64,000 nucleotides of DNA, taken from sequence record NC_052655.1. One strand, 5' to 3'. Shown piece by piece: positions 26,069-45,208 of this stretch. The stretch comes from Escherichia phage alia. Both the position numbers and the translations under genes were made by a program. Positions within the stretch are counted from its first letter, which is position 1. The number at the start of each line of letters is the position of its first letter. The notes beneath the pieces are model-generated. The model worked only from the letters and a program-made list of their open reading frames with translations. It was not told where the DNA came from and did not search any database.

Positions 26069-26237
26069 TTTTAATCCTCCGTCCAAAAGAATATCATCTG
26101 CTTAATTTTATTGATTTCTTGATGTAGTAACTTTCCAGCATGTGATTGATCTTTAATATTGACAGCAAGAATTTCAAGTTCCGTTAGTTTTTCTTGGATA
26201 GCTTTATATTCATCATCTGTAAGCATTTTCTTCCCCT

Positions 26238-26441: not shown

Positions 26442-26450
26442 ATAAATAAA

Positions 26451-26475
26451 GGAGGCTTTCGCCTCCTTTTATCAC
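26451..26475 (-). terminator. intrinsic terminator hairpin (GGAGGC-tttc-GCCTCC)
   Basis: Perfect 6-bp stem with flanking T-run, directly downstream of the ATPase stop. Confidence 0.5.
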
Positions 26476-27636
26476 TTAGTAAGAACGACCACCAAACACA
26501 TACTCTGTGTAGTTTTTACGTTCTTTGTTTTTAATAACAACTTCAATGTTGTTACCTTTATCATCGGTGAACATAAAGTGATAACCGTCACCACCCATTG
26601 TACGGATGTGTTTTTCATCATACGTCAGCAAGATACGGTCTACACCCCAGTAGTAGTCACCTTCTTCATCTTTATCTTCTACGGTAACAATCCCTTCCAT
26701 TTCAGGAAGATGCTCTTCACCTAGTTTATGGTCTACAGCTACAACATAACGATTACCGCTAAACAAACCTTGTGCTGTCATACCGTCAATATCGGTATCT
26801 GCCGAAACATCTCCTGTACGATCTACACCGTTAACTTTCAGAAGTTTAACCTCTTTTGCAGCATAGCGGTGTTCAGTAATACTGATACCCATTAATGCAA
26901 GTGCATCAGAGAATTTGTCATTAGGATAACGGTTAAGTTCTTCTACTAATGACTGAACAATATCAAAGTTCAAGTCCACGGACAGATTATAAAGCGTTTC
27001 AAAATCTGGTAAAAAGGCTTTGTTCTCCAGATTTTTAGCCAGATAATCATCCATAGTAGCTTTAGGTAGTTTCTTATAGCTAAAGCTGTAGAAAATACGG
27101 CTAGGGCGATTACGCAAAAATTCTGATACATAACCATCATTTTTAGTCAATACAAACAGCTTGTCATAGCCACCAACACCATCCAGCAGGGTAAGCAAAC
27201 CATCCTGTGCATCTTTTTCAGCATACAGTTTATCAAATTCATCGATCATAATCATCACAGGTTGTGTGATTTTAGACATAAAATTGATAAAGCCTTCACC
27301 ATTAAAAGCACTACCGATAGAAATAGTAGGAATACCCATTTCACGAAGAGCAGAAGACAGCATTTTAGCTTGCAAAGTTTTACCGCTACCCTTCGTACCC
27401 TCAAGGAGAACACCTGTGTTTTTACCTTTGCGGCTAAGGAACGTCTTGATAATACGTTCTGATTTATCATCAGTATCACCGTATGTTACTGAAGGGACTT
27501 CCATATCGTTTTTAGGATACAGGAAGAACTCACCACTTTGAGTAACACCTACACCAAAAGTTCCTGCTGGAATTTCTTCGATATCTGTACCAGACTTCTG
27601 ACGCAGGAAGATTTGATTGCCGAATACTGTAAACAT
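26476..27636 (-). CDS. P-loop NTPase (AAA-like), paralog A
   Basis: Walker A 'GTKGSGKT', Walker B 'MIMIDEFD'; about 50% identical by eye to the plus-strand ORF at 41617-42744. Confidence 0.7.
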   Translation of the reverse strand: MFTVFGNQIFLRQKSGTDIEEIPAGTFGVGVTQSGEFFLYPKNDMEVPSVTYGDTDDKSERIIKTFLSRKGKNTGVLLEGTKGSGKTLQAKMLSSALREMGIPTISIGSAFNGEGFINFMSKITQPVMIMIDEFDKLYAEKDAQDGLLTLLDGVGGYDKLFVLTKNDGYVSEFLRNRPSRIFYSFSYKKLPKATMDDYLAKNLENKAFLPDFETLYNLSVDLNFDIVQSLVEELNRYPNDKFSDALALMGISITEHRYAAKEVKLLKVNGVDRTGDVSADTDIDGMTAQGLFSGNRYVVAVDHKLGEEHLPEMEGIVTVEDKDEEGDYYWGVDRILLTYDEKHIRTMGGDGYHFMFTDDKGNNIEVVIKNKERKNYTEYVFGGRSY

Positions 27637-27656
27637 AGTTTTCTCCTCTATTTAAT

Positions 27657-28127
27657 TTAGTCAGATTCCCAAATGTTGTCTTTCTTAATCCACATTCGTT
27701 GATTATCTGAACCTCTATAACGTTTCGTTGTTGGTTGATTCATATCATACTTACCATCTATCACTATGTCAACCAGTTTTTTAATTTTTTCTGGAATTTC
27801 TTCAAAAAGATATCCTGTATATAAGACAATATCTTTTTTGTTTCCAAAACAATCTCTTACCTTCTCAAGAACATACTCTACAGTGTCAATGTTCTCTTTG
27901 TCAAGAGGTTCACCACCTAAAACTGTTAATCCTTTAATGAAAGGTCGAGATAAATCTTTCAAGATAAGATCTAATGTTTCAGTAGTGAACTCTTGTCCGT
28001 AGTTATACGACCAGGCTTTCTGGTTGAAGCAGCCACGGCAACCGTGGCTACAACCGCTCACCCACAAAGAGCATCTTACACCGTCACCGTTGAGCATGTC
28101 AACAGGTTCATATCCGGCATAATTCAA
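27657..28127 (-). CDS. nrdG: anaerobic ribonucleotide reductase activating protein (radical SAM)
   Basis: 'CSHGCRGC' radical-SAM CxxxCxxC cluster; 156 aa; immediately downstream of NrdD. Confidence 0.8.
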   Translation of the reverse strand: MNYAGYEPVDMLNGDGVRCSLWVSGCSHGCRGCFNQKAWSYNYGQEFTTETLDLILKDLSRPFIKGLTVLGGEPLDKENIDTVEYVLEKVRDCFGNKKDIVLYTGYLFEEIPEKIKKLVDIVIDGKYDMNQPTTKRYRGSDNQRMWIKKDNIWESD

Positions 28128-29923
28128 AAATGTTTCTCCCTTTCCAGTACCTCTTGCATTTTACCTTTATTATAAGGGCGAGAGTTAGGGGCAGACAGGT
28201 ATCCTGACACTCTTCTGATTACAGATATAGATTCTTCCTCATGATTGCCACAACTTGGACACTCGAAGCCTTTAGCTGTTGCCTTAAATTCACCATGAAA
28301 ACCACATTTGAAACACTGATCTACAGGTTGGTTCACGCCAAAATAAGGAATTTTGTTGTAGGCATAATCTACAAGAGTTTCCAGTGCTTGCAAGTTATTT
28401 TTAAGGTTTGGTGTTTCTACATAACCTATGTTCCCACCATTACTGATTTGTGCAAAACCTTCCTCATAATCCCACTTTTGGAACGGGGTAGTGTGCATCC
28501 ACACAGGTTGATGGAAAGAGTTTGTCAAGTAGTCACGATCAATAGAACCAGGATAGCGATCATTTAATGCTTTGGCAAATTTATAGCACAAGGATTCTGC
28601 TGGTGTTCCATACAAACTAAAAGCTAAACCAGAACGTTCTTTAAATGTGCCACAGATATCCTTCATATATTGAAGGATGTTTTTACCCATTGCTTTTGGA
28701 TTGGTGTTACCTGGGTATAAAATCTCCATAGCTTCTGCTAAACCTACATAACCGATACTAATAGAGGCATAACCACCTTCGAATAGTTTACCAATCTCTT
28801 CATTAGCTTCTAGTCGAGCTAAAGCCCCTTCCATAAACAATGTAGGGTTTTGGGATGCTTTGGTATGTCTAATACGGTTAACACGTAGTATATGTGCCTT
28901 ATACGCCATCTCCATATGTTGTTCCAACAGTTCAGTAAATAAGATGCCCTTTTCACGGGACTCTGCTGCAATGATAGGTAAGTTTAAAGAAACTACACCT
29001 AAGTTGAAACGACCATCATATTTTTCACCTTGCTCTGTTGCATAGTATGACAAGAAGCTACGGCAACCCATGCTTGTGACGCGACCATCTGAAGATCCTG
29101 TAACTTCTTTGTTTAAAGGTACAGAGATAAAATCAGGATAAATGCGTTCAGCACAACACTCCATTGCCAGTTGCTTCAAATCATAGTTTGGATCGCCAGC
29201 TTTCATGTTAACACCATCTTCCAAGAAGAAGATAACTTTAGGAAACACAGGAGTTACCCTATCTTTTCCTAATCCTTGTTTGTGCACCATTAGGTAGTTT
29301 TTAGTGATCATTCTACCAAAAGCAGAGGTATCCAAACCTAAACTAATTGTTATAAAAGGTGACTGACCATTTACACTCATTAGGGTGTTCACCTGGTAGA
29401 TTAAAGTTTGCATTGCATCATAGACCTGTTTATCTACCATACGCATAGCAATATCATAATCGCCAACATCGGCATATATTTTGTTAAAACTTGCTTTAAC
29501 GTATTGACTAAGCCCAGTATCAATATGTGCACAAGTTTGTCCACCATATTGGCTAGAAGCTACTGCTTGAATAATTTGAGTTAGGACAGTAGTTGCTACA
29601 CCTATAGACTTTGGTTTTTCAATATGTGCATTACCAATACGGAAACCGTTCTCAAGCATATCTTGGTAATTTACCAGGCAACAATTAGTTAGAGGTGAGA
29701 GTAAATAATCTAAATCGTGAATGTGACCATACCCACTTTTGTGCCATTCTGCCAGATCATCCGGTAAAATATGGGTCATTGCCATGTGCTTGCTTAGGAT
29801 ACCTGCTAGTAAGTCTCGGTGAGTATTAACAATCATTGCAGGTTTGTTTGCATTTTCACGAGTAAATTCTTCGGATGTTTGTTCGAGGAATCCGATTACA
29901 TCCTCATATAGTTTTTGGGTCAT
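28124..29923 (-). CDS. nrdD: anaerobic ribonucleoside-triphosphate reductase
   Basis: C-terminal glycyl-radical motif 'RVSGY' preceded by the Cys cluster 'CFKCG...CPSCG'; start moved to the Met with a GGAGGA RBS (track start 29953). Confidence 0.9.
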   Translation of the reverse strand: MTQKLYEDVIGFLEQTSEEFTRENANKPAMIVNTHRDLLAGILSKHMAMTHILPDDLAEWHKSGYGHIHDLDYLLSPLTNCCLVNYQDMLENGFRIGNAHIEKPKSIGVATTVLTQIIQAVASSQYGGQTCAHIDTGLSQYVKASFNKIYADVGDYDIAMRMVDKQVYDAMQTLIYQVNTLMSVNGQSPFITISLGLDTSAFGRMITKNYLMVHKQGLGKDRVTPVFPKVIFFLEDGVNMKAGDPNYDLKQLAMECCAERIYPDFISVPLNKEVTGSSDGRVTSMGCRSFLSYYATEQGEKYDGRFNLGVVSLNLPIIAAESREKGILFTELLEQHMEMAYKAHILRVNRIRHTKASQNPTLFMEGALARLEANEEIGKLFEGGYASISIGYVGLAEAMEILYPGNTNPKAMGKNILQYMKDICGTFKERSGLAFSLYGTPAESLCYKFAKALNDRYPGSIDRDYLTNSFHQPVWMHTTPFQKWDYEEGFAQISNGGNIGYVETPNLKNNLQALETLVDYAYNKIPYFGVNQPVDQCFKCGFHGEFKATAKGFECPSCGNHEEESISVIRRVSGYLSAPNSRPYNKGKMQEVLEREKHF

Positions 29924-29934
29924 TAATCCTCCGT

Positions 29935-29964
29935 GGAAAATAAAAGCCAGCATTAAGCTGGCTT
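29935..29964 (-). terminator. intrinsic terminator hairpin (AAGCCAGC-attaa-GCTGGCTT)
   Basis: 8-bp stem followed by a T-run on the minus strand, downstream of gene 30013-30963. Confidence 0.5.
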
Positions 29965-30012
29965 TAGGGTGGATCTTTATTTTAAATCTTTTTCGTAAGA
30001 TTGTCCTTGATC

Positions 30013-30963
30013 TTAGTCAAGGTTTTTGGTAATACGTGTACAACCGTCAGAAGTCAAACCGTCAACTTGAGTTTCCCAAGTGCCATGAATATTTCGGAAC
30101 AATGTTGTTACACCTTTTGGTTCATTAATAATGATTGCCATAACAAGTTTAGGATCGATAACAGACATAATCTTTTCCTCAATACCCTCTGTAATAACAT
30201 TATTACGCACAATATTAATTACATCTTCTTGTACAGTAAGGGTACTTACGTTCTTAAGAGTATATACCTGCTGCGTAGTGTAAATGATACGAACATAGCT
30301 TACAGAACGAGTAGGCACAGGTTTACGCGGTCGGCGAAAACGTGGTTTTGGTGAAGATTCAGTCTTACTTTCATTTTTTGAATAATACTCCTCAAACAGT
30401 TTAGTAAATGTTTTTACATCAACTACAAACCGATCTTTCCTATATGGAGAATTCTTATGTGCACCATTAATACCACTGTTTTCATCGAAGAAAGTAATGT
30501 TTTCTTCAGTTGAATACATTAGATAATGATCTGCATTTTTCCAATGTGGTTGTGGACAATGAGGATTACAAACGGAAAGCAAATAACTAATATTTTCTTC
30601 CGTGGCCTCAGTATCCAGGAAACACGTATTATGCACAGTCAGTTGTACTTTTTCAGCCATATCTTTTTCTTTATCCTCTTTAGTAAGATATTCAGTACGA
30701 ATAATCTCCAGAAAACCTTCAGGTGTTACTTCCATAAATTTATATTCAGGATGAAGCTCCATATATTCAAACCCACAACCATCTAACTGCTGTAGGAAGT
30801 TAGGGTAGAAGAACAAATCATTAACACTGTGAATCAGATCATTGATTTCTGCTTCAGTTGTGTAACCAAAACTCTTGTGAATTGCTTCGTTAAGAATATG
30901 CAGGATACCCATCTCTTCTGCTGCTTTTTTAACTTCCAGTTTATTAGCGTAAAATGCAATCAT
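30013..30963 (-). CDS. hypothetical protein
   Basis: 316-aa ORF. Confidence 0.5.
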   Translation of the reverse strand: MIAFYANKLEVKKAAEEMGILHILNEAIHKSFGYTTEAEINDLIHSVNDLFFYPNFLQQLDGCGFEYMELHPEYKFMEVTPEGFLEIIRTEYLTKEDKEKDMAEKVQLTVHNTCFLDTEATEENISYLLSVCNPHCPQPHWKNADHYLMYSTEENITFFDENSGINGAHKNSPYRKDRFVVDVKTFTKLFEEYYSKNESKTESSPKPRFRRPRKPVPTRSVSYVRIIYTTQQVYTLKNVSTLTVQEDVINIVRNNVITEGIEEKIMSVIDPKLVMAIIINEPKGVTTLFRNIHGTWETQVDGLTSDGCTRITKNLD

Positions 30964-30980
30964 TATGTTCTCCTTCTAAA

Positions 30981-31415
30981 TTAGTTTAAAATTTCTTTTG
31001 CAATGGTAGAAGCAAGTTTTCCATCATATTGATTCGGATACTCTGCTTTAAGGTGTTTCATCATATCTGGCATTTTCTTGCCTGTCAAGGCAAATTCTTC
31101 AGCAATAGCTCGAAGATCATCTTCAGATAGCATTTCTGGCAAATATTTTTCCAGAGTGGTGATATCACGCATAGCTCGCTCACACTTGCTAATGGAGGCA
31201 TTAACTTTCTTAAGCGAGTCTAGTTCCTCTTTAGCGTGTGCAATACCAATCTTAACAATGTTAATCATAATATCGTCTTCTGATTTATTTAGATTTGCCT
31301 TTTGAGTACGAGCAAGGTCAAACTCACCAATAATATTAGTTAACAAAGCAAAAGCACCCTTATCGGTTGTACGTGCTAAAATACGATCTGCTTTCATTTG
31401 TGTCACAATAGACAT
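30981..31415 (-). CDS. GatB/YqeY-domain protein
   Basis: 'LEKYLPEMLSEDDLRAIAEE' matches the YqeY consensus ('LE.YLPEQLSEEEL'). Confidence 0.6.
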   Translation of the reverse strand: MSIVTQMKADRILARTTDKGAFALLTNIIGEFDLARTQKANLNKSEDDIMINIVKIGIAHAKEELDSLKKVNASISKCERAMRDITTLEKYLPEMLSEDDLRAIAEEFALTGKKMPDMMKHLKAEYPNQYDGKLASTIAKEILN

Positions 31416-31427
31416 TCTATTCTCCTC

Positions 31428-32000
31428 TTATTTGCTAATGCTTTGAGTCTTGTTTACAACACGGTTTATTGCCAGTGAAGCCCTAGGCTCTGCAATACCT
31501 GTTGCATAGATATAAGGATGACCTTTTGGAGACTCCCTCATACCGAATGAACCTAATTCTAAACCATATTCATCCTCTACGTCAACCCCAATATTAGTGG
31601 GTACTAAATATGTTTTAACTCCGTAATAAGTAGAGAAGAAACAGCGCATAGCGTTAGCATACTCTTCAATTGTAGCATCAGGGTAGAACTCAATCAACTC
31701 CAATTTCAAGAAAATATTAAAATGGGTATCATCTAAATTTTCTTCTGTGCGGTAACATGGTGTTAGTGCCATATACGGATTACCTACTGCAAATTCAAAA
31801 CCATCCTTCTCCATTTGCAGGAAAGATTGTTCTGCACTAGCTACATAGTATTTACCGTTAGGATGCCCTAATGGGCGATCCTCTTTATTTTCTGGTAGTG
31901 TATACGCCAGTATATCAGCATCCACGAGATATGGAACTTCTAACATTTGTGCAAATCGACCATAGTAATCAATAGCTTGAGCTATTACTGCAACATTCAT
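31428..32000 (-). CDS. hypothetical protein
   Basis: 190 aa; 'PCYRTEE' is reminiscent of class II aaRS motif 2 but the match is weak. Confidence 0.45.
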   Translation of the reverse strand: MNVAVIAQAIDYYGRFAQMLEVPYLVDADILAYTLPENKEDRPLGHPNGKYYVASAEQSFLQMEKDGFEFAVGNPYMALTPCYRTEENLDDTHFNIFLKLELIEFYPDATIEEYANAMRCFFSTYYGVKTYLVPTNIGVDVEDEYGLELGSFGMRESPKGHPYIYATGIAEPRASLAINRVVNKTQSISK

Positions 32001-32248
32001 GATCGACCTCCATTGCGGAATGCACGTTTAGTAATGTTTGACATAGTGATCAAATCTTGAAGCGTCATACCAGGAAAATGCTGTTCAAGAACACCTTCAA
32101 CAGCACCTACAATATCTGATAACTCAATAAGTTGCATCAGCTTGCAATCTTGATCAATAGCATCTTGAAGTTCATAAAGCTCTTCTTGAATCTTAGCAAC
32201 AGAACCATATTTCTCTTTGCTAATCTCCTTCAGATGATACCCTGCCAC
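31997..32248 (-). CDS. hypothetical protein
   Basis: 83-aa ORF. Confidence 0.4.
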   Translation of the reverse strand: MAGYHLKEISKEKYGSVAKIQEELYELQDAIDQDCKLMQLIELSDIVGAVEGVLEQHFPGMTLQDLITMSNITKRAFRNGGRS

Positions 32249-32258
32249 TTTAACCCCC

Positions 32259-33995
32259 TTAGTTTACCAGTTTATTTATGTCTGGTAAAAGATTTATTTC
32301 ACCTAAGAAATCACCTTCACCTTCCTCTAGCCAACTCTCATATGCTTGTGCATGATTATAGTTACCATCAAAAGAATCTGCAACAAATTTTTCTACAGTT
32401 TTTCGAGATGTGCCAGCGCCAAATACACCAAGTTTAATACCATTGATCGGTAAAGTGGTACTTGTGGGTACTTTCTCTGTTGCAACACGGTTGATATCTA
32501 TAATCTCCTGTACGGTTGTGTTCCATTGTAAGCATTTAACACAACGGGTATGCGCTACATACAGTAGGTTTCGCTCTGCCTCTTCTAGTCCTACCCATTC
32601 ACCAGTCTTTTTATCATAGTTGGAAGGAAAATCATTAGCAACAATAACCTGATCCCACTCCAAACCTTTAGACTTATGTGCTGTAGTCAGTGTGACTTTT
32701 GCTGTAGGAGAATTTCTATGCGTTCTAAGTGTATGTGCTATAGTGTTTGCCTTACCAGAAACTACGATGTTTAACAAGCGTTTAGCATCTGGATCAGCCT
32801 CTGCACACTCAACAAATTCATTCCAGTCTGCGTAAGGTAATACAGTTTCATGTTTTACTTTCTCAATATCTCCTCTCCGAAGAGCATTAACACTATCTAC
32901 CATAGAGATAAAATCCCTGGTATCTACGTTAATAATAATTTCTTCCCCATCTGCAATACGATCCATTGCCTCCATAAGCAAGGTTAAATTCTTGCGAAAG
33001 ATGATAGTGTAAGGTTTTGTATAGTCTACAACATCTGATTTGTAGCTACCTACTACAGTATCAAAGCCTTTACCAACCAAAGGGTGACGCAAAGGTTCTT
33101 TATCGCTTAAAATCATATTGGCAATGTTTGCCACTTTGGGGCCAAAACGGAAGCAAGCAGTTAATGGAAGCTCTGCCCCATATGTAGATGTTTCCTTCAT
33201 CATATTTTGGCTTCCACGGAACTGGTAGATGCTCTGATATTCGTCACCCACCACTACTACTTGTTTTGCAGATTTAGCATTTCGCAGAATAGACAAAAAT
33301 GCAGGGTTAACATCCTGGAATTCATCACCAAAAATAATATCATAACCAAGATCAGCACCAGACAATTCAAATAATTTTACATAGGTGTCATGCGTCATCA
33401 AAGTATCTGTGTTAGGATCGATGCGCTCTCGCCACAATTGTTTTGCATACTTAACTACTTCTGTAATTAGTTTGTGTTCGTTAATACCTTTTCTTTTAAT
33501 ATCTGCAAGATGTACACTAGGAAAATGTTTACGGCTGATAAAAGGATCATCCGAAAATTCAAACTTACCTACGGTTTGTTTGATCATTAAACCAATCATA
33601 GCACGAGTTAAAAGTGTTTTCCCTCGTTTATCAATAAGATTATTAATCTTAAATTTCTTTGCTATCTCACTACCTGTACCTGCAACGTTAACATACTGTC
33701 CTTCTGGTCGTGATAGTTTTGCACGTAAACGATGATCCAGGAATTGATAGCAAATAGAATGCAATGTACGGCATTCTACATTTAGTGGCATCTTACGTCG
33801 TGCTTCTTCTGCCATGCTTTTATTGAAAGCTAAGTAAAGAATGCGATCTTCTGTACTGTTAGCCAGCAAATAAAGTGTTGACGTTTTGCCTGATCCAGAT
33901 TTAGCTTGGATAGTTAAAAAGCGATGGTCTGGAAAAGCCTCCTTAATAGCTGTTTGCTCTTCTGTTGGAGTGAAGCTCAACTCTTTCTTAGCCAT
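32259..33995 (-). CDS. UvrD/PcrA-like superfamily 1 helicase
   Basis: Walker A 'AKSGSGKTSTL', 'VVVVGDEYQSIYQFRGS' (motifs II/III); start moved to 'MAKKELSF'. Confidence 0.8.
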   Translation of the reverse strand: MAKKELSFTPTEEQTAIKEAFPDHRFLTIQAKSGSGKTSTLYLLANSTEDRILYLAFNKSMAEEARRKMPLNVECRTLHSICYQFLDHRLRAKLSRPEGQYVNVAGTGSEIAKKFKINNLIDKRGKTLLTRAMIGLMIKQTVGKFEFSDDPFISRKHFPSVHLADIKRKGINEHKLITEVVKYAKQLWRERIDPNTDTLMTHDTYVKLFELSGADLGYDIIFGDEFQDVNPAFLSILRNAKSAKQVVVVGDEYQSIYQFRGSQNMMKETSTYGAELPLTACFRFGPKVANIANMILSDKEPLRHPLVGKGFDTVVGSYKSDVVDYTKPYTIIFRKNLTLLMEAMDRIADGEEIIINVDTRDFISMVDSVNALRRGDIEKVKHETVLPYADWNEFVECAEADPDAKRLLNIVVSGKANTIAHTLRTHRNSPTAKVTLTTAHKSKGLEWDQVIVANDFPSNYDKKTGEWVGLEEAERNLLYVAHTRCVKCLQWNTTVQEIIDINRVATEKVPTSTTLPINGIKLGVFGAGTSRKTVEKFVADSFDGNYNHAQAYESWLEEGEGDFLGEINLLPDINKLVN

Positions 33996-33996
33996 T

Positions 33997-34473
33997 TCAA
34001 CCTCTCTTAATTTGTTTAACAAGCATAGGAACAAAATCTCGTTTTAAAATTTGTTCAATAATATGATCAGGTAGCTGTTGGAAATTATAATTAAAAGCTA
34101 CTGTCTCACCTTTAGGTGTTTCTACCCGCACATATAACATGTTACGAAGTTTATCCACTTGTGCTGTGTATTCTAAACCATGTAATTGATGCATTGCAAA
34201 CATCAAATCATCAGTTTCAGTTTGGAATCTATCCCTTCCCTGCATCAAGGACAAGGAAAAAGGTAGATTTTCTCTAAGAGCCACCTTCTTAGGCACTAGT
34301 GAAGGGAAATATTCCCCAATAACTGCCTGTGTAAGCTGAATACACTCTTTTTCAAGCTGGTTTTGTTCCTTGAGTTCACAAACACTCTTTTGTAAAGTGT
34401 TAACCTCTTTTTGCAAAGCTGCTAGTTGAGCACTTAACTTTCTTTTTTGATTACGACCAAAACGTTTAGACAT
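33997..34473 (-). CDS. hypothetical protein
   Basis: 158-aa ORF with a coiled-coil-like N-terminus. Confidence 0.45.
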   Translation of the reverse strand: MSKRFGRNQKRKLSAQLAALQKEVNTLQKSVCELKEQNQLEKECIQLTQAVIGEYFPSLVPKKVALRENLPFSLSLMQGRDRFQTETDDLMFAMHQLHGLEYTAQVDKLRNMLYVRVETPKGETVAFNYNFQQLPDHIIEQILKRDFVPMLVKQIKRG

Positions 34474-34482
34474 ATTTTCCCC

Positions 34483-34998
34483 CTAGTAAAACCCTTTAAC
34501 AATCTGTATTAACTCGGCACAACGGTTGACCAACTTTTCCTCATACAATACACGTTGTGGCATATGTTGTATAATATACTCCATTTGCTCATGCCATGTC
34601 CACTTTTCTTTTTTGTCTGGGATAACATCACTAGCACGAGAATTATCTTTTAATGTTTGTATAATCCAATTGCTTGGAAAGTGCTCTCCACCTTTCTTAA
34701 ATGGTTTATAGTGGCCTAGAGTGAATTGAGAATCCCCTGTTAGAGCACCCAATTTATTTAGATGGATAATCAAACTACGAAACACATAATATTCATAAAT
34801 GTTATCCACCGTATAGCAAGCATAATATTTCAAGATGCCCTTATCTCGCGGATACTTACCAACATCCAGATTGCACCAGTTGACATTTTCTGGATCATAG
34901 TGGTGTTCCTTAAGCCATATTTCTCTTTCATCAAAGTCTGGATATATTACCGCTCTGCTTACAGAGTCAACAAGTGGGGATTGAGCATCAAAAAACAT
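34483..34998 (-). CDS. hypothetical protein
   Basis: 171-aa ORF. Confidence 0.45.
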   Translation of the reverse strand: MFFDAQSPLVDSVSRAVIYPDFDEREIWLKEHHYDPENVNWCNLDVGKYPRDKGILKYYACYTVDNIYEYYVFRSLIIHLNKLGALTGDSQFTLGHYKPFKKGGEHFPSNWIIQTLKDNSRASDVIPDKKEKWTWHEQMEYIIQHMPQRVLYEEKLVNRCAELIQIVKGFY

Positions 34999-35019
34999 TA
35001 TATTTTCCTTATTGGTTTG

Positions 35020-35385
35020 TTAAACGTTTTCTAAATCTTTTAAGGCATTACCCAACGTTAGAACAATAACATCGTTTGCTGCCTCTTCCCCGTTGATATT
35101 GGTGAAATTTGGTGTGACAAAAGTAACCATATAAAACTCGTCCACCTGGAAGACAGCAATAACACCATCCATCTTAACATCTTGACGAAAGGAAAAACCA
35201 ATCATCTTCTCTTGCAAAGGCATATCCCCTTCCTTCATTACCGCTAGGGAGTTTTCAGGAATGTTATATTTATCTGCTCCGATGTAGATGTACGTAATGT
35301 TATCTTTATCGTGATGATACAGGGTTGCTTTTTCCATATCTAAACCTGACAGATCAAATACGTTAATTTCTTGTGTAGTCTTCAT
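35020..35385 (-). CDS. hypothetical protein
   Basis: Start moved to internal 'MKTTQEINVF' with a GGGAGGA RBS. Confidence 0.4.
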   Translation of the reverse strand: MKTTQEINVFDLSGLDMEKATLYHHDKDNITYIYIGADKYNIPENSLAVMKEGDMPLQEKMIGFSFRQDVKMDGVIAVFQVDEFYMVTFVTPNFTNINGEEAANDVIVLTLGNALKDLENV

Positions 35386-35773
35386 AAATATCCTCCCAAA
35401 TCCAATAATCATCTGTGTAAGTAGGATGCCTTTTATCCCACTCTGCTCTAGCCCAAGCAACCGCTGCTACCAACACATCACCATGACAAGGTTGAGGTGC
35501 GCAGAAGCAAACTAAGTCTTTCCCTTCTAATTCTAACAAATCATCAAGAGTGATTTTACCACAACGAATTTGTTTCCACAACCACTCTTTATATCTTTGT
35601 ATAGTTGACCCTCGTGGTTCATCATCCTTTAACTTAAAAGGATTTGCAAACTTTGAGGCTTTTAACCCCATAAGAGGCATAGCTCTGCCAATGTAAACTG
35701 CACCTTCAGGTATTACTTTACCTAAGTGGTAAAAATTTAATACTTTCATATTAACCCAAACACATCTGTGCAA
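35363..35773 (-). CDS. DUF4326-like protein
   Basis: 'GRAMPLMGLKASKFANPF...DLVCFCAPQPCHGDVL' resembles the DUF4326 family. Confidence 0.4.
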   Translation of the reverse strand: MHRCVWVNMKVLNFYHLGKVIPEGAVYIGRAMPLMGLKASKFANPFKLKDDEPRGSTIQRYKEWLWKQIRCGKITLDDLLELEGKDLVCFCAPQPCHGDVLVAAVAWARAEWDKRHPTYTDDYWIWEDIYEDYTRN

Positions 35774-36101
35774 TCAAGCCCTGTATAAATTTATTAGCTT
35801 CTTTACTGTCGTAGTCAGTCTCTTCTGGATATCCATCTTCATCGTACACAACTGTACCTTCAATATACCCTGCCTCAATTAAGGCGCGGATCATATCAAA
35901 TTGCCAGCATGAGTTACCAAATGGACGTTTACCATTAAAACACTCTTCTTCTCTCCATAACGTAGAGAGTAGTTGTCGGAAATATTCCCGTACAGTGACA
36001 GTACCAAGATCTGAATCCTCAAACATAACATCCAGGGCATCAGGATTGCTTTTCTCTACATAAGGAATGTATTTAACACCATTAATAGTTACATCAAGCA
36101 T
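35751..36101 (-). CDS. hypothetical protein
   Basis: 116-aa ORF. Confidence 0.4.
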   Translation of the reverse strand: MLDVTINGVKYIPYVEKSNPDALDVMFEDSDLGTVTVREYFRQLLSTLWREEECFNGKRPFGNSCWQFDMIRALIEAGYIEGTVVYDEDGYPEETDYDSKEANKFIQGLIAQMCLG

Positions 36102-36464
36102 TTATTTCTCCTTATCATCATATTCTAGGAACATGTCTGCACGATATGCTTTACGCTCTTCAAACTTAGCAGGATTTACAACAATAAGCAATACAAGGTT
36201 AACATCTAAATACTTCTTAACAAATAGAAATAAATCTTTTCCACAGTTAAAACCTACACCAGTATAGGCATCCCCATATTGATCTACTGATTTAATCTTC
36301 TTACTAACCGTACATTCTATGCTATTCTTTTCTTCTTGGTATAAGGCTTTCCCACCCCAATATGTAAAGAATTTAGTACCGTCAGCACCAAGTTTAAAAC
36401 CTTCTGTTGCATGTCCAGCAAATGAAAGTAAACATAACCAAGTGATCATCAGGTACTTTAGCAT
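36102..36464 (-). CDS. hypothetical secreted protein
   Basis: Signal peptide 'MLKYLMITWLCLLSFAGHA' at the internal Met. Confidence 0.45.
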   Translation of the reverse strand: MLKYLMITWLCLLSFAGHATEGFKLGADGTKFFTYWGGKALYQEEKNSIECTVSKKIKSVDQYGDAYTGVGFNCGKDLFLFVKKYLDVNLVLLIVVNPAKFEERKAYRADMFLEYDDKEK

Positions 36465-36465
36465 T

Positions 36466-36948
36466 TTAACCACCCAATTGCAAATGTTTAGAAAGAACAA
36501 TATCCCATTGATCACCACAACCGTTATCTATGCGGAACATAATGTACGTATCATCTTCTTCTACAATATACCGTACCTCATAGGAATTACAACAGCCTTC
36601 CCAATTTTTAACGGCTTCTGGTGTATGATGTGTAAGAATTTCATTACCATCATATGACCAAAACAAAGGAGTAAGGTTTTCGAAGGTCAGTGAAGTAGGG
36701 TTTACTTCATCTTTAACTGCTTCCTCATATTCTTTATGCGTTTGTACTGCTTTAGTTAGTGTACTCATGTCTATCTCCTTTTCTCCTTCTTGACTATGGA
36801 GGATAGCAAACTCTCTAAACTCCACTTCACGCCATGTTTTCAGGTAGTGCTTTATAATTTTATCAACATCTGCCTGTTCAACATTACTTTTCAAGCAATA
36901 GTAATCATGGTCTTCGCCCATTCTACCCCATATGCTATACATTGTCAT
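36466..36948 (-). CDS. hypothetical protein
   Basis: 160-aa ORF. Confidence 0.45.
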   Translation of the reverse strand: MTMYSIWGRMGEDHDYYCLKSNVEQADVDKIIKHYLKTWREVEFREFAILHSQEGEKEIDMSTLTKAVQTHKEYEEAVKDEVNPTSLTFENLTPLFWSYDGNEILTHHTPEAVKNWEGCCNSYEVRYIVEEDDTYIMFRIDNGCGDQWDIVLSKHLQLGG

Positions 36949-37216
36949 CTGATTGATCCTTTACATTGTCCTTGGCATACACAGGAATAACATCATCATG
37001 ATCTTTATTACTTTCATCTGTTAAAGCCCAAAACAACTTACCTGCTGGATGTTTAAAGATGTAAGCAATAGGTTCCTCTTCCTGTGCTTCTTTGCTACGG
37101 ATGCCATCCCGCCAGGCAAGCCAAGTGTAGATCATCATCTCTTGACGTTCTTCTTCATTAGGCCACAGATGTGGTAGAAAGTTTTTATCAAACCATTGCT
37201 TAAACTCTTCAGTCAT
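36935..37216 (-). CDS. hypothetical protein
   Basis: 93-aa ORF. Confidence 0.4.
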   Translation of the reverse strand: MTEEFKQWFDKNFLPHLWPNEEERQEMMIYTWLAWRDGIRSKEAQEEEPIAYIFKHPAGKLFWALTDESNKDHDDVIPVYAKDNVKDQSDDNV

Positions 37217-37451
37217 AATCTACTCCTTAGCGTACAAAGTTAACTTCTGCTTCTTTCAGCTTTGACACTTCTACATAACCACCATGATCATCTTTAATCC
37301 ATTCTTTTCCTTTACGGATGATAACAGGGTAGGTAGAGTGAGTAAGTTTAGGTACAGATCTTTTTGTTTTAGTAATAGAAATGTTTTGCATAGTAGTCTC
37401 CTTAGTAAATTTTACATAGAGTCTAGCTTATTTAGTAGATAGAGTCAATAA

Positions 37452-37718
37452 CTAATTACTGTTAGATCTGTACTCTGTCTTCCATTCACAATGGTAAACT
37501 TCAACAGGTTCTAACTTCCAATGTTCAGGAACTAATTCAGGACAATATCTACAAAAGAGAAATAGATAGATAACTAAGACAGGTATTAAATAGTAAAATG
37601 GTATACGATCATAACCATACTTACGAGATAACATGTAGACATATAGATAGGGTATAACAATTAATCCTATAACTATAAGTAAGAAGAGAAGTATAAACCT
37701 TAGTGTAGTAACATCCAT
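37452..37718 (-). CDS. hypothetical membrane protein
   Basis: Two hydrophobic helices. Confidence 0.4.
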   Translation of the reverse strand: MDVTTLRFILLFLLIVIGLIVIPYLYVYMLSRKYGYDRIPFYYLIPVLVIYLFLFCRYCPELVPEHWKLEPVEVYHCEWKTEYRSNSN

Positions 37719-37882
37719 AGTATTCTCCTATACAGTAATATACTCTGTTCCTGCCCCTCCATGAGTGACAGGAACAATATCTATAGAGAATACTAACTCG
37801 CTTCGCTCGTCACCTTTCAGGTTTAGGGTAGCATGTTTTTCTGAAAAAGTCAATACTCTCCACAAAACTTTACAAAATACTT

Positions 37883-38155
37883 TTACATAGGTACAACAGA
37901 GTCTGTTTTGAAGTCGTACATATGATTTACACCTGTGATTTTTGACATAGAGATTGCACGTTTAACACCTGCAATTACCTGGTCTGTCTTCTTAATCTCT
38001 TCACGGAACTTACGTACAGTTAGAGAGAAGAAACGATGATCCATCCATTGACGATTCACACGATCACGCTTGAAGTGACGGAAATCTTCAATCTGCTTAT
38101 TGCGCAATCGGCGCAGTACATGCAATAGTTGATAGTAAGGGTGTTTATTTTTCAT
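37883..38155 (-). CDS. hypothetical protein
   Basis: 90-aa basic ORF. Confidence 0.4.
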   Translation of the reverse strand: MKNKHPYYQLLHVLRRLRNKQIEDFRHFKRDRVNRQWMDHRFFSLTVRKFREEIKKTDQVIAGVKRAISMSKITGVNHMYDFKTDSVVPM

Positions 38156-38158
38156 AAA

Positions 38159-38587
38159 TTATTCTCCAAATCGAAAGTCGTCAATATCATCAAACCATAC
38201 ACAATGGCGAGTCCTTTCTTTTTCTGTTGCAGACATTGTTTCAACAGCTTTAGGACTAAGCACAACAGGAATGTAACGAACAGGTCGTTCATAATAGTAG
38301 CCATACTTTTCTGTATTAGCTGCCTCAAAGACTTTACGGCGTTCTTCAAGATCTTCTATGGTGAATCCTACCATATAACCATCATGTTTGCTACCCCATC
38401 CTTCCTCACTTTCAACAATCGGGATATAAAAGCCGTTACGCGTCCCTGACGCTGGTTCTTCTTGAGCCTGAAGGCAAGCCTCCCATCCTGCTTTAAAGAT
38501 GTTATAGAGCGATTTACGCACGTTATGAGTGCCGCTTTCGCTTGCTGGATAGAGTTCATTAAATTTGTCTTGGATTTGTTGCGTCAT
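38159..38587 (-). CDS. hypothetical protein
   Basis: 142-aa ORF. Confidence 0.45.
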   Translation of the reverse strand: MTQQIQDKFNELYPASESGTHNVRKSLYNIFKAGWEACLQAQEEPASGTRNGFYIPIVESEEGWGSKHDGYMVGFTIEDLEERRKVFEAANTEKYGYYYERPVRYIPVVLSPKAVETMSATEKERTRHCVWFDDIDDFRFGE

Positions 38588-38730
38588 ACTCGCCCCTTAG
38601 TGATTATTTGACCAGCTAAACAAATAGCTTGCAGTACAGTAAAGAAATAGCCTAATTTTACACCACCCAATACCCAGAATGCAATGTTTGCAAACAAACA
38701 AAAAGCAATATTAAGTCTAAAGAATAACAT

Positions 38731-38997
38731 TTAATCCCCTTCATATTTAGGTAAAGGCATATATGCCACAATGGGAGGGTAATCAAAGTGAAAATGATGG
38801 TTCACCACAATAATCTTACCAGACATACTTTTATGCACTTCACAATACCCTTTTTCACCATCTTCCATTACCACCACATACTCACCTAGTGGAATATCGT
38901 ATGGATCTTCTACTTTTACCCATTCTGTCATTTTGTAAACTCCTCGTAGTAAGGTAAAGCCTTGATTAGTTGTTCTGAAGTGCCATTTTGCACCCAC
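38731..38997 (-). CDS. hypothetical protein
   Basis: 88-aa ORF. Confidence 0.4.
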   Translation of the reverse strand: MGAKWHFRTTNQGFTLLRGVYKMTEWVKVEDPYDIPLGEYVVVMEDGEKGYCEVHKSMSGKIIVVNHHFHFDYPPIVAYMPLPKYEGD

Positions 38998-39095
38998 GTA
39001 ACACCATTGTCAACAGAAACATACCCTTTTTTGTCAATAAATTTACGCAGACAGCCAGTGAACTTATTTTTGTAGATAGCCATGTTTACTCCTTG

Positions 39096-39452
39096 TTACA
39101 TCCACAGATTATGAAAATACTTAGCAAACAAAATGCGACCTTCTAAACGATCTTGCCGCTGTTTTTCATTAACCTCTTCTGGTGGAGTTGAGTCCTTAAA
39201 AGAAGACTCCATTTTTTCAAGAATTTCTAACCAGTGTTCTGTTGCTCGTTCTTCCATGTAAGGTAGATAGTCACCTTTAGCGTGTGGGTACATCCGACGA
39301 AGTAACCCACTAGGAATTTTAACATTGTTTGTGGCTATCACTTTTGCACGATATGTAGAAAGTGCATTGTAGATCAGTTTACTTAGTGTCACATCTAAGT
39401 CAAGAAGATCACTCTCTTCAAATTGAATTTCATCGTGTACAATTTTCATCAT
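39096..39452 (-). CDS. hypothetical protein
   Basis: 118-aa ORF. Confidence 0.4.
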   Translation of the reverse strand: MMKIVHDEIQFEESDLLDLDVTLSKLIYNALSTYRAKVIATNNVKIPSGLLRRMYPHAKGDYLPYMEERATEHWLEILEKMESSFKDSTPPEEVNEKQRQDRLEGRILFAKYFHNLWM

Positions 39453-39733
39453 GCTTTCTCCCGATCTGCCTCTAATTTCAATAAGAAAGCTGTATACTCT
39501 TCCGAGCCTTGATGTAAAAACATGCGATAAGAGCTTACTAGTTTCTTCGTTGTCGTATAACGTTCCATTTCCCCAACAACACCTCCACCCAAGGTGTAGA
39601 GCACAACACCCTCAAAACCAACATGAGTTACTACTTCAATCAAATCTGTGTTATCCCAATGGTAGTTAGGTGACACAATAAGATCGCCAACTGCCAATTT
39701 AATGTTTGCTGCTTCGTTTTGTGAATAATACAC
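39449..39733 (-). CDS. hypothetical protein
   Basis: 94 aa; start/stop overlap with neighbour. Confidence 0.4.
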   Translation of the reverse strand: MYYSQNEAANIKLAVGDLIVSPNYHWDNTDLIEVVTHVGFEGVVLYTLGGGVVGEMERYTTTKKLVSSYRMFLHQGSEEYTAFLLKLEADREKA

Positions 39734-39745
39734 TTGGTTCTCCTC

Positions 39746-40036
39746 TCACATTAAAACACGTTTTGCATTGCTTGGTGCATTGTCGAACATGTTTATCACT
39801 TTGTCAAGTTTGTGTATTAACTCGTTCGTAATGTTCCACTCTTTGTATGATCTCCATTGTTTCTTATTCTCACCTACCTGGTGTAAAACTTTGATGGGTG
39901 CATTCAAACGTACATTGCGTTCTTTGTCCTCTTCAAAAGAGGCTAACCATTTTTCGTTATGCCCATGAACAGCAATAATAATGCCAAAACCATCAAAAGT
40001 TTCTGTAATATTCTTAGTTGCTAGTGTGATGTTCAT
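39746..40036 (-). CDS. hypothetical protein (first gene of the minus-strand block)
   Basis: 96-aa ORF at the strand-switch point. Confidence 0.4.
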   Translation of the reverse strand: MNITLATKNITETFDGFGIIIAVHGHNEKWLASFEEDKERNVRLNAPIKVLHQVGENKKQWRSYKEWNITNELIHKLDKVINMFDNAPSNAKRVLM

Positions 40037-40155
40037 ATCTAACCTCTTTTGTTACGATGCACACAGAGTACCAGAAATTAATTTCAGATCAAGTATTGAC
40101 ATACTGTTTTATTGTGCTAATCTTAATGTATACACAAATGAGAGGAGATAAACGA
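40037..40155. promoter_or_regulatory. divergent intergenic region (strand switch)
   Basis: About 120 bp separating the divergent gene blocks; contains TTGACA near 40095 and a GAGGAG RBS before the plus-strand ATG. Confidence 0.4.
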
Positions 40156-40707
40156 ATGCAAAACATCGATCTTACTTGGATAGAAGCCAAAGAAGCAATG
40201 TTAAAAGGCAAACGCGTTAAACATAAATACTTTTGCGAAGGAGAATGGTTTGAAATGCGTAACCGATCCATTGTAGATGAAAAAGGGAATGACATGCAAC
40301 AATGGTTCAAAAATGAAATTTGGCAGGGAACAGGTTGGTCTGTAGTTGAAGAGCAGCCTAGCTCAAGCGCACTGTTTAGCCCTATTATGTATCGCGTTAT
40401 CGGTGCTTTAGTTGTTGATCACGGGATTGCAGTGGAAAAAGAATGCTGGGAAGAGGTATCTTTTTTCAACCTGGCTTCTTATGCAAAAAGCCATATGCAC
40501 TTGTTTGAAGAAGGGGATGAATTTGTTCTTCGTATGCGATATGGCAAAGAATTCAGATTACCACTTGATAATGATGTAGACACTGTTGTAAAATGGTTAG
40601 CAGAGCATTACGCTTACGATGCAATTTGTGGTCGCAGCTTCGGCAACGAACGCTGGGACATGATTTGTGAAAAATATGATTTTGAGCCGGAGTACGGAGT
40701 TTTATAA
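40156..40707 (+). CDS. hypothetical protein
   Basis: Start set at 'MQNIDL' with a GAGGAG RBS (track start 40057 is in the same frame). Confidence 0.45.
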   Translation: MQNIDLTWIEAKEAMLKGKRVKHKYFCEGEWFEMRNRSIVDEKGNDMQQWFKNEIWQGTGWSVVEEQPSSSALFSPIMYRVIGALVVDHGIAVEKECWEEVSFFNLASYAKSHMHLFEEGDEFVLRMRYGKEFRLPLDNDVDTVVKWLAEHYAYDAICGRSFGNERWDMICEKYDFEPEYGVL

Positions 40708-40958
40708 TGTTAAGTATCAAACCTAAAATGATAACAGAAGACGAAGCAGACTTTATTTTCAAATGTGGACGTGTATGGAGAGAATTCACAAAAGGGAATG
40801 AAGTGGTTGTTGTTGTCGAACACAAGATATCTATCCAGGATCTGTTTGGACAATATGTTGATGTTATTAAATTAGGTATTGACAAGGGTTTAGTTGAGGT
40901 GTTAACATTAGATCAAGTTGAAGCAGAGCACCTCGATAAAGTGGTGGTTGAATTTTAA
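40707..40958 (+). CDS. hypothetical protein
   Basis: 83 aa; ATG overlaps the upstream stop. Confidence 0.45.
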   Translation: MLSIKPKMITEDEADFIFKCGRVWREFTKGNEVVVVVEHKISIQDLFGQYVDVIKLGIDKGLVEVLTLDQVEAEHLDKVVVEF

Positions 40959-40978
40959 AATACAGACGGGAGAAAGGT

Positions 40979-41152
40979 ATGAGTTTCTTTGTTACAGTAT
41001 TTATGGCTATCTGGATTGTAGTCTCACTCGTTCTTTTCCTGGTGGGTTGTCTGGAAGAGATTAAGAAAGCGGTTATTTGCGGTTTCTTTGGCTTTATTAT
41101 CTCTCCTGCCTGGATGTGGTTCTTCATTATGATTGGTTTCCTTAAAAGGTAA
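40979..41152 (+). CDS. hypothetical small membrane protein
   Basis: 57-aa hydrophobic ORF (below track cutoff) with RBS GGGAGAAAGG. Confidence 0.35.
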   Translation: MSFFVTVFMAIWIVVSLVLFLVGCLEEIKKAVICGFFGFIISPAWMWFFIMIGFLKR

Positions 41153-41166
41153 GTGAGGAATAAAGA

Positions 41167-41604
41167 ATGAGTAAAACAAACGCAATTACAGATAAAGCAA
41201 CTGATGTACTTCTGAACATGGTTAACGTCACTATTCAAACAATGAGTGATGTTGTAGAGTTTGGAAAACAACAAATTCCAGAAGTAATTCATCAATTATT
41301 AATGTGGAAAGCAGTATCCGCAGGTTTATGGCAATTTTTTGGTATTTGCTTTATGTTTATTGCTTTTATTGCTGTGCGGAACCTCATAAAAGCAATTAAA
41401 GATAAAGAATGCCTGTGGTCACGAGATCGCTATGGTGGAGTATCTGCTTTGCCTATTGTTGGTCTTGTTGTCTCTGCTTTCTTTTTCCTTTTAGGATTTA
41501 TTATTTTCTTTTCGAATTTCGATTGGCTAAAAATTATTATTGCACCAAAAGTGTATCTGATTGAATTTGCTGCTGATTTAATTCGTTCATCTCAACAAAG
41601 ATAA
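41167..41604 (+). CDS. hypothetical membrane protein
   Basis: 145 aa with hydrophobic helices. Confidence 0.45.
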   Translation: MSKTNAITDKATDVLLNMVNVTIQTMSDVVEFGKQQIPEVIHQLLMWKAVSAGLWQFFGICFMFIAFIAVRNLIKAIKDKECLWSRDRYGGVSALPIVGLVVSAFFFLLGFIIFFSNFDWLKIIIAPKVYLIEFAADLIRSSQQR

Positions 41605-41616
41605 AAAGGGGTTAAA

Positions 41617-42744
41617 ATGAAATACACTATTTATGGTGATATTGTAAGTGTAAATAAAGATATGGGCGTGGAATCTAACTATCTTCCACCTGGATTCTAT
41701 ACTGTTAGTCGTGATCCCCTTGGCAATTACTTTTTAAGCCGTGGTAATCTAACAGGTGTACCGGATGTTCTGTATGGTGAAACAGAAAAACGAGCAAATC
41801 ACGTTATTCGTACATTCCATCGCCGGAGTGCACAAGGTAAAAATACAGGTTTGCTCCTGACAGGAACTAAGGGCAGTGGTAAAACTATGTTAGCCAAACT
41901 CATTAGTCGTGACCTTGTAGAAGAAGGTATTCCAACTATTATGGTTACTCAAGCCTACAGTGATGCTAATTTCATTGAACTTATTAGCAAGATCACCGAC
42001 AAAGCAGTGATTATTTTTGACGAATTTGATAAAGTATATGAGAAGAAACAAGATCAAGAAGCACTTCTCACTTTGTTAGATGGTACTGGCAGTGGTAATA
42101 AACTGTTTATTCTAACTAAAAACAGTGGCTTTATCTCTGAATTCTTTCTAAATCGTCCTAGTCGTGTGTTTTATAATTTTAATTATGATAAAATCTCACT
42201 AGAAACTATGATTGACTATTTAGATAAAAACCTGGATAACAAAGCACACTTTGATAATTTCCAAAGACTTTGGGATGTAAGTTTAGAGTTGTCCTTTGAT
42301 GTGATCCAAGGTATAGTAGAAGAACTTAATTTCTACCCTGATTTATCCTTTAAAGAATGCATCTCTATGATGGGCGTTTCTTTAGGTGGTGGTAATAAAT
42401 GGGATATTAGCAGTGTTGTTATTAATGGAAAACTTCAGAAAGTTAGCTGGGTATCTAGTTGGCATAACTTCACACCTGCAATCTTTTTAGGTGGTTCGTG
42501 CACACTGGACGTGTACTTGTCATCTCCAAGTGATGCAGACTCTAAAGAAGCCCTTGCTAATAGCTCTTACGTGGTTTTTGATGATGAAGGCGATGCTCGA
42601 ATTCCATTGAATGCGACAAAAATGAAAGCAGATCTTATTACAGGCGGTAAAATCGTTGTGTTTAGTGATGATCCAGAAGATTCTTTCCGTATTGTTCTGG
42701 AACCAACTATCACCAATGGTGCAACTTTGGCAAGTGTGTTTTAA
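41617..42744 (+). CDS. P-loop NTPase (AAA-like), paralog B
   Basis: Walker A 'GTKGSGKT', Walker B 'VIIFDEFD'; collinear similarity to 26476-27636 ('LLTLLDG', 'NRPSR.FY', 'DVIQ.IVEELN'). Confidence 0.7.
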   Translation: MKYTIYGDIVSVNKDMGVESNYLPPGFYTVSRDPLGNYFLSRGNLTGVPDVLYGETEKRANHVIRTFHRRSAQGKNTGLLLTGTKGSGKTMLAKLISRDLVEEGIPTIMVTQAYSDANFIELISKITDKAVIIFDEFDKVYEKKQDQEALLTLLDGTGSGNKLFILTKNSGFISEFFLNRPSRVFYNFNYDKISLETMIDYLDKNLDNKAHFDNFQRLWDVSLELSFDVIQGIVEELNFYPDLSFKECISMMGVSLGGGNKWDISSVVINGKLQKVSWVSSWHNFTPAIFLGGSCTLDVYLSSPSDADSKEALANSSYVVFDDEGDARIPLNATKMKADLITGGKIVVFSDDPEDSFRIVLEPTITNGATLASVF

Positions 42745-42763
42745 GTAAGCCAGCAAATAAAAA

Positions 42764-42783
42764 CCCGCTCCGGCGGGTTTTCT
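42764..42783 (+). terminator. intrinsic terminator hairpin (CCCGC-tccg-GCGGG-TTTTC)
   Basis: GC stem plus T-run 20 nt after the ATPase stop. Confidence 0.55.
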
Positions 42784-42818
42784 TGTATTGATGCCAGATT
42801 TAATAAGAGGAGTAATAG

Positions 42819-45191: not shown

Positions 45192-45208
45192 TTTTTATAG
45201 GTATGCGT

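Follow-up and report, generated by a model that had tools for sequence, protein, structure and literature searches.

The 64,000-nucleotide stretch of the Escherichia phage alia genome analysed here (sequence record NC_052655.1; hereafter, the window) raises the question of what a phage does with two copies of one ATPase gene placed far apart and on opposite strands. A preliminary description, made from the sequence alone, had pointed to two paralogous P-loop ATPase genes, here called A (minus strand) and B (plus strand), and had suggested that they have subfunctionalised. Both open reading frames (ORFs) exist exactly at the coordinates and on the strands given there, with 13,980 bp between them (Table 1). 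A and B are old, retained paralogs of a single phage family, phrog_2376, of the AAA+ proteins (ATPases associated with diverse cellular activities), and we consider it somewhat probable that both are functional, as versions of one protein-remodelling motor that act on different clients from separate units.

Over its full length, region 26000-43000 of the window shares 97-98% identity with over 50 phi92-like Escherichia phages, such as VivaForever, Paula, PaulScherrer (Bas60) and phi92 itself, and these phages, the window genome among them, belong to the genus Justusliebigvirus in the subfamily Stephanstirmvirinae. An ATPase annotation of both genes is already public. The counterparts of A are annotated as ATPase in phi92-like phages (for example, phi92 gene_190 and bas60_0075), and the labels given to the pair read 'ATPase (x2)', 'putative ATPase or Zn metalloprotease (x2)' or 'hypothetical protein' together with 'FtsH-like protease', the last being the label of bas60_0109, the counterpart of B.

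A and B are full-length paralogs under purifying selection

BLASTP aligned residues 2-253 of A with residues 3-256 of B at 119/254 identities (47%), with 70% positives, 2 gaps and E=1e-81, so that the two proteins are indeed the collinear paralogs with intact Walker A and B motifs that had been proposed, and all other catalytic motifs are intact as well. The further claim of conserved blocks throughout holds for these ~254 amino acids but not for the last ~120, which BLAST left unaligned. By domain, the identity between A and B is 55% in the AAA alpha/beta domain, 47% in the lid, 28% in the N domain and 14% in the C-terminal domain, and 18 alignment positions are fixed differently between the clades to which A and B belong.

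Despite their 14% identity, the C-terminal domains are homologous, because both proteins match the phrog_2376 profile in full, their C-terminal domains are linked by profiles through a third clade, and the models of both show the same order of elements. Classification with hidden Markov models placed both in phrog_2376 from end to end, with residues 1-376 of A on profile positions 2-359 of 363 (E=5.7e-104) and residues 1-367 of B on positions 1-357 (E=6.6e-108), and several B orthologs could be aligned with A across residues 2-369. When hhalign was run with profiles of the C-terminal domain only, that of A was linked to the intermediate clade C (P0024-P0029) with a probability of 95.6% and that of B with 92.2%, and the direct comparison of A and B was collinear with E=0.004. 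AlphaFold2 models, with predicted local distance difference test (pLDDT) scores of 90.2 for B and 88.5 for A, have an identical order of secondary-structure elements: five short strands lead into the AAA alpha/beta fold, which is followed by a lid of four helices, then a beta-rich domain and last a floppy tail. What the two proteins share therefore goes well beyond the P-loop.

Both genes are real and retained under strong purifying selection. Compared with PaulScherrer, A carries 18 synonymous differences and 1 non-synonymous difference (ratio of non-synonymous to synonymous polymorphism, pN/pS, of 0.015), and B 18 and 0 (pN/pS 0). These values, together with the intact motifs in both, rule out that one copy is decaying.

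Both proteins are classical AAA+ ATPases and lack a protease

A and B are classical-clade AAA+ ATPases of one phage-specific family, phrog_2376. Both pass the gathering cutoff of the Pfam family AAA (PF00004), with 29.4 bits for A and 38.9 bits for B against 21.2. The Walker A motif is the same in the two proteins and the Walker B motif reads MIMIDEFD in A and VIIFDEFD in B, where D135 and E136 (B numbering) are invariant; in alignments of 70-146 sequences the Walker A glycines and lysine and the Walker B D-E pair do not vary. Sensor-1 N169 and arginines R180 and R183 of the second region of homology (SRH), again in B numbering, are invariant in 146/146 family sequences. The SRH itself, LT-K-N ... 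N-R-P-S-R-[VI]-F-Y, has the family form N-R-P-[GS]-R, which is the classical form of this region; the corresponding region of FtsH reads ...RPGRFD. The column expected for pore loop 1, between beta2 and alpha2, holds an aromatic residue in 126 of the 146 sequences (F in 55, Y in 43, W in 28), followed two positions later by G in 95 and D in 32, and the loop reads F111-N-G in A and Y114-S-D in B. An alignment with p97 had given the impression that this pore loop was deleted, which the aromatic residue conserved at the expected column rules out.

The solved folds closest to the models are likewise classical AAA+ proteins, namely Bcs1, Trip13, NSF and Rix7. The Bcs1 AAA domain (PDB 6u1y), the bacterial Trip13/Pch2 of CBASS (cyclic oligonucleotide-based antiphage signalling system) operons (6p8v), NSF-D2, NVL/Rix7 and Bacillus subtilis YjoB are 13-22% identical to the phage proteins. 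Unlike these relatives, the phage proteins carry N-terminal (~55 amino acids) and C-terminal (~120 amino acids) beta domains of their own, and they have one AAA module with neither a membrane anchor nor a protease. This three-part architecture is common to A, B and the other members of phrog_2376, and in a viral structure library the only close matches were unnamed phage AAA ATPases.

The reading of A and B as FtsH-like proteases or Zn-metalloproteases, found in several GenBank labels, is hardly credible. The likeness to FtsH is limited to the generic AAA module; HExxH is absent from both proteins and no Peptidase_M41 or other protease match was found in Pfam or NCBIfam, which refutes the protease annotation at the sequence level. 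FtsH carries an M41 peptidase domain, for which A and B give no sign, nor do they show an evident transmembrane region, and what follows their lid is the ~120-residue beta domain, which has no detectable sequence relatives and gives no match when searched alone. Membership of the clamp-loader, DnaC and DnaA-Hda classes is not borne out either: the scores were 29.8 bits against a curated cutoff of 194.8 for Hda, 19.9 against 200 for IstB and 27.5 against 189 for PRK08116, and the arginine motif is NRPSR and not the SRC of clamp loaders. Among the PADLOC defence profiles the best match was mad8 (E ~1e-3, 16-17 bits), a similarity at the level of the P-loop only.

The end domains evolve faster than the motor

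Between orthologs, the C-terminal domain is 48-61% identical and the ATPase core 84-93%, and for A and its ortholog in Klebsiella phage phi1_175008 the two values are 48% and 93%. Searches with the N- and C-terminal domains gave no significant Pfam or PDB sequence match, the best being a YceI-like protein at E=0.03. The divergence between A and B is concentrated in the N- and C-terminal domains and not in the motor, the pattern to be expected of two copies whose partners differ. A conserved motor joined to diverged end domains suggests that the two copies probably serve different clients.

The last residues of A have a low pLDDT, and the tail of B ends in ...TLASVF. Of 144 family members, 77 have F, Y or W as the last residue of the flexible tail, while the members from jumbo phages end in ...MFDGK instead. 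B-clade tails (TLASVF, NLSLLY, SLSSVF) loosely resemble beta-clamp-binding motifs.

The pair is old and its arrangement is conserved

Three lineages keep A and B on opposite strands, 14-18 kb apart, with matched divergence. Klebsiella phage phi1_175008 has an A ortholog at 75.5% identity and a B ortholog at 73.9%, and the metagenomic ERZ19034208 scaffold_69 has an A-type gene at 67% and a B-type gene at 65%, on opposite strands, ~15 kb apart and among the same neighbours, with the A type between NrdD-NrdG and PRTase_3 and the B type between the divergent junction and NADAR. A more distant relative (L014) has A-type genes at 56-57% identity in that slot too (UvrD, YqeY, A, TerC, TelA).

In the window, A has NrdG on one side and a HAD, PRTase_3, Macro, TerC and TelA block on the other, and B is found 1.5 kb from a divergent junction along its plus-strand arm, both as the preliminary description had placed them. 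That description had also put A at the edge of a Ter/PRTase module. The placement is real and conserved in three relatives, but A is not an obligatory part of the module, because the Phapecoctavirus phage ESCO13 keeps the whole of it without A.

We placed the homologs gathered by searches with B and with A in a neighbour-joining tree with 200 bootstraps, where A and B each had a clade of their own. The small C clade comes from an uncultured phage of 154 kb, the jumbo phages (GAP32, Serratia BF, Yersinia fHe-Yen9 and Xanthomonas XbC2) formed a further clade, and the rest were homologs from Aeromonas phages and a large metagenomic set. The A clade had 100% support and the B clade 99-100%, and the Phapecoctavirus ortholog nested within B, so the split between A and B is older than the divergence of Justusliebigvirus and Phapecoctavirus. 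A, B, C and the sequence P0030 formed a clade with 76% support inside a larger, 100%-supported clade that adds the jumbo and Aeromonas phages, and A grouped with the C clade in 52-73% of bootstraps.

Phapecoctavirus genomes gave a single tblastn match, of the B type. In ESCO13 the A slot is empty: a 63-amino-acid ORF stands directly after nrdG, with the HAD, PRTase, macro, TerC and TelA genes next in line. The matched divergence of A and B, and an A clade that reaches deeper (56-57% identity) than the Phapecoctavirus B orthologs (64-67%), favour an old duplication followed by the loss of A in Phapecoctavirus; taken jointly with the functional account given below, we incline to the view that the duplication predates the divergence of the Stephanstirmvirinae genera. 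A different origin, which would be compatible with the same mechanism, is that A is a xenolog, a cassette of promoter, gene and terminator that came from a related phage and was inserted after nrdG. The clean presence or absence of A at a syntenic slot, the promoter-like site and terminator of its own and the grouping with the C clade of another phage fit such an insertion. It is set against the 76%-supported clade in which A, B, C and P0030 are separated from every other homolog, the depth of the A clade, the matched rates at which A and B diverge and the conservation of the A slot in the distant relative, and we regard it as a possible but doubtful origin.

Most members of phrog_2376, a family labelled 'ATPase' and found in Phapecoctavirus, the jumbo phages GAP32, BF and fHe-Yen9, Aeromonas and Acinetobacter phages, Lactococcus phage 949, Herelleviridae and crAss-like phages, are single-copy, whereas the window and its Klebsiella-phage and metagenomic relatives have two old copies dispersed on opposite strands. 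Two members of the family, orf98 and orf99, stand in tandem in Lactobacillus phage LpeD; they are reciprocal best hits at 38% identity and look like an independent duplication.

Other homologs stand among varied neighbours. The single homolog of Acinetobacter phage YMC13/03/R2096 lies between DNA polymerase and an exonuclease, that of a Staphylococcus Sextaecvirus after helicase, primase, RNase H and RecJ, those of Aeromonas phage BUCT695 and LpeD near TerD or TelA genes, and that of Lactococcus phage 949 among small ORFs and tRNA genes; in three metagenomic contigs the genes near the homolog are NAMPT and SprT-like ones, one that matches VWA faintly, or PTPS and NUDIX. An obligate partner gene was considered and rejected, given this heterogeneity around seven homologs from other phages and metagenomic contigs.

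A and B appear to belong to separate transcription units

The three strongest terminator-like hairpins between 25.9 and 45 kb each lie directly past a gene end, and two of them are those that follow A and B. Hairpins follow every ortholog examined, those of A in the Klebsiella phage and in L014 and those of B in the Klebsiella phage, ESCO13 and L016; their stem sequences differ, and they have GNRA or UUCG-type loops and T-rich tails. Upstream of A stands a sigma-70-like promoter match, and weaker promoter-like pairs lie 37-38 nt upstream of the A orthologs in the Klebsiella phage and in L014 and L015. These positions suggest that A is probably transcribed on its own, within the arm that holds replication and nucleotide-metabolism genes.

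In the first plus-strand unit counted from the divergent junction, B would be the last of five genes, and a second sigma-70-like match, which would drive this unit, is found at that junction; the Klebsiella phage has a TTGACA-16-TAAGAT match at the same place. The preliminary description had assigned B to an early block, and it is on this promoter match that B may be taken to be early.

What the two copies would do

From the genes we infer ring formation, a protein and not a DNA substrate, distinct clients and distinct timing for the two copies. A and B would each form a ring, driven by ATP hydrolysis through the Walker A and B motifs, the sensor-1 asparagine and SRH arginines acting in trans, and the aromatic residue of pore loop 1 (F111 or Y114) would grip a protein client to remodel or unfold it. 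Selection of the client or docking partner would fall to the two end domains, the small beta domain at the N-terminus and, at the C-terminus, the beta-rich domain with its flexible aromatic tail, so that one mechanism would be applied by A and B to different clients, with B closing the first plus-strand operon and A working from its own unit beside the NAD/ADP-ribose and Ter block. The subfunctionalisation proposed in the preliminary description is plausible on this basis. Several points weigh against this account. Relaxed constraint, and not specificity, could explain the fast evolution of the C-terminal domain; promoter and terminator matches in the region are no more numerous than in shuffled sequence, so that only their positions and the conservation of these carry weight; the Acinetobacter and Staphylococcus phage homologs lie within a replication module, which also fits a DNA-related role; and literature searches turned up no paper or experiment on the two genes.

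If phrog_2376 instead worked on DNA, as a replication accessory of the helicase-loader, clamp-loader-like or initiator-like kind, A would be the copy of the replication arm. Those two replication-module homologs would then fall into place, as would the strand block that A shares with DNA polymerase, primase/helicase and UvrD genes, the weak profile matches to PHROGs of DnaC-like loaders and clamp loaders (1e-5 to 1e-8), to Hda and to IstB, and the names 'DNA replication protein' or 'DnaC' that some sources give to homologs. However, the Hda and IstB scores are far under their curated cutoffs, the SRH is of the classical clade and is combined with an aromatic-x-Gly pore loop, the clamp-loader SRC motif being absent, the top structural neighbours are protein remodellers, and gene contexts in other phages are heterogeneous; we regard a role on DNA as unlikely. 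By analogy with Pex1/Pex6 or Yta10/Yta12, A and B could also co-assemble into one mixed hetero-hexameric ring. Like the subunits of these rings and of Rpt1-6, they are duplicated classical AAA+ motors, co-retained with matched divergence (here in three lineages), the two-copy state has recurred independently in the LpeD tandem, and the trans-acting arginines, which act across subunit interfaces, are kept in both. Against such a ring, A and B are not co-transcribed but lie in separate opposite-strand units each with its own terminator, and single-copy relatives exist: Phapecoctavirus and most other phages have one copy, so homo-oligomers must work. A mixed ring is accordingly more doubtful still.

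A further variant would make A and B client-specific versions of a phage unfoldase directed against host or defence proteins, with the end domains as arms-race interfaces and the tail docking the ring onto a host machine. One candidate for docking would be a peptidase, in analogy to tails of the HbYX or HslU type; another would be the beta sliding clamp, given that QLxLF is loosely matched by the B-clade tail xL[SA]x[VL][FY]. We give this variant little chance; were it true, the recurrent duplications, dispersed here and tandem in LpeD, would represent repeated retargeting of one motor. The reading we retain is that of one remodelling motor in two functional copies with different clients.

Neighbouring genes and other features

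Table 1. Positions of the features discussed, in window coordinates except where another record is named
Feature	Position	Strand	Remarks
Paralog A	26476..27636	-	386-aa AAA+ ATPase; ~99% identity to counterparts in phi92-like phages
Paralog B	41617..42744	+	375-aa AAA+ ATPase; counterpart of phi92 gene_221 and bas60_0109
Walker A of A	27376..27399	-	GTKGSGKT, aa 80-87; G80, G83, G85 and K86 invariant in a 74-sequence family alignment
Walker A of B	41863..41886	+	GTKGSGKT, aa 83-90; G83, G86, G88 and K89 invariant in a 70-sequence alignment
C-terminal domain and flexible tail of A	26479..26880	-	aa 253-386; beta-rich, fast-evolving
C-terminal domain and tail of B	42376..42741	+	aa 254-375; beta-rich, fast-evolving
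Tail end of A	26479-26500	-	
Tail end of B	42720-42741	+	
Terminator-like hairpin after A stop	26448..26469	-	AAAGGAGGC-GAAA-GCCTCCTTT then ATTTAT
Terminator-like hairpin after B stop	42760..42781	+	AAAACCCGC-TCCG-GCGGGTTTT then CTTGTATT
Sigma-70-like promoter match for A	27744..27772	-	TTGACA-17-TATGAT, 11/12; ~110 nt upstream of ATG, within nrdG 3' end; consensus only
Sigma-70-like promoter match for B unit	40096..40124	+	TTGACA, 16-17 nt spacer, TAATCT; in 120-bp divergent region; consensus only
LpeD orf98 and orf99	L008 18775-21062		Herelleviridae phage; Walker A/B and NRPGR intact; TelA gene 3 kb downstream
Variable block between A and TerC/TelA	23853-26086	-	HAD, PRTase_3 (ComF-like), Macro
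Macro-domain ORF	23853-24686	-	Mechanical TTG start
NADAR gene	44217-44768	+	Follows B on plus arm
465-aa ORF	42819-44216	+	Just past B terminator
Three small genes by divergent junction	39096-40036	-	
Same three genes in ESCO13	L003 2553-3490	+	On plus arm
UvrD/Rep helicase gene	32259-34034	-	No intein
Glycosyltransferase genes, tandem	11544-12488; 12500-13513	-	
phrog_3054 gene	41167-41604		Just upstream of B
Two phrog_3054 copies, uncultured 154-kb phage	L002 15787-16670		Adjacent

The block between A and TerC/TelA is variable and has a NAD/ADP-ribose theme. The Klebsiella phage has two extra MazG-like genes in it and the distant relative L014 a PARP-domain gene, and in the window a NADAR gene follows B on the plus arm. 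With its mechanical start, the Macro-domain ORF shares 125 nt with the PRTase gene; in PaulScherrer the coding sequence starts later and has 735 nt, and the true start of the window gene is probably downstream too.

The 465-amino-acid ORF just past the terminator of B contains five CapR-homology repeats and a weak T5orf172 match (phrog_681 'endonuclease'), and it looks like a homing-endonuclease-type mobile gene. It has a 35%-identity counterpart in ESCO13 and is not at this place in Klebsiella phage phi1_175008 or scaffold_69. As a partner of B it was rejected, being homing-endonuclease-like and missing there in two relatives. On the other side of B, the window has one phrog_3054 gene where the uncultured 154-kb phage with the C-clade ATPase has two adjacent copies.

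Three small minus-strand genes by the divergent junction are found on the plus arm in ESCO13 at 54-94% identity, which indicates a small inversion at this junction. The UvrD/Rep helicase gene has no intein in the window and a 347-amino-acid intein in PaulScherrer (Bas60), the genomes being 98% identical. A second pair of paralogs in the window is a tandem of glycosyltransferase genes, both with full-length phrog_7162 matches (E ~1e-146 and 1e-149), and ESCO13 has four glycosyltransferase genes at that place. Under gene_190, which corresponds to A, the phi92 records carry a 'hypothetical tRNA'; ARAGORN and Rfam found no RNA gene in window positions 25500-45500 (20 kb), the tRNA annotated under phi92 gp190 included.

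Significance

A and B are an ordinary, ancient and retained AAA+ duplicate, in which we found nothing that points to a new mechanism, and their interest is the handle that they give on phrog_2376. This ATPase family is widespread among large lytic phages and wholly uncharacterised: with tblastn, a gene of this type turned up in 301 phage records, which extend from jumbo phages of Enterobacteria to Herelleviridae and crAss-like phages. The public labels 'FtsH-like protease' and 'Zn metalloprotease' are misleading and are corrected by the present analysis. The phi92-like phages (BASEL Bas60-63) are genetically tractable E. coli phages that carry two old copies with the same motor and different end domains, and the pair thus offers a natural domain-swap and deletion system for finding the clients of phrog_2376.

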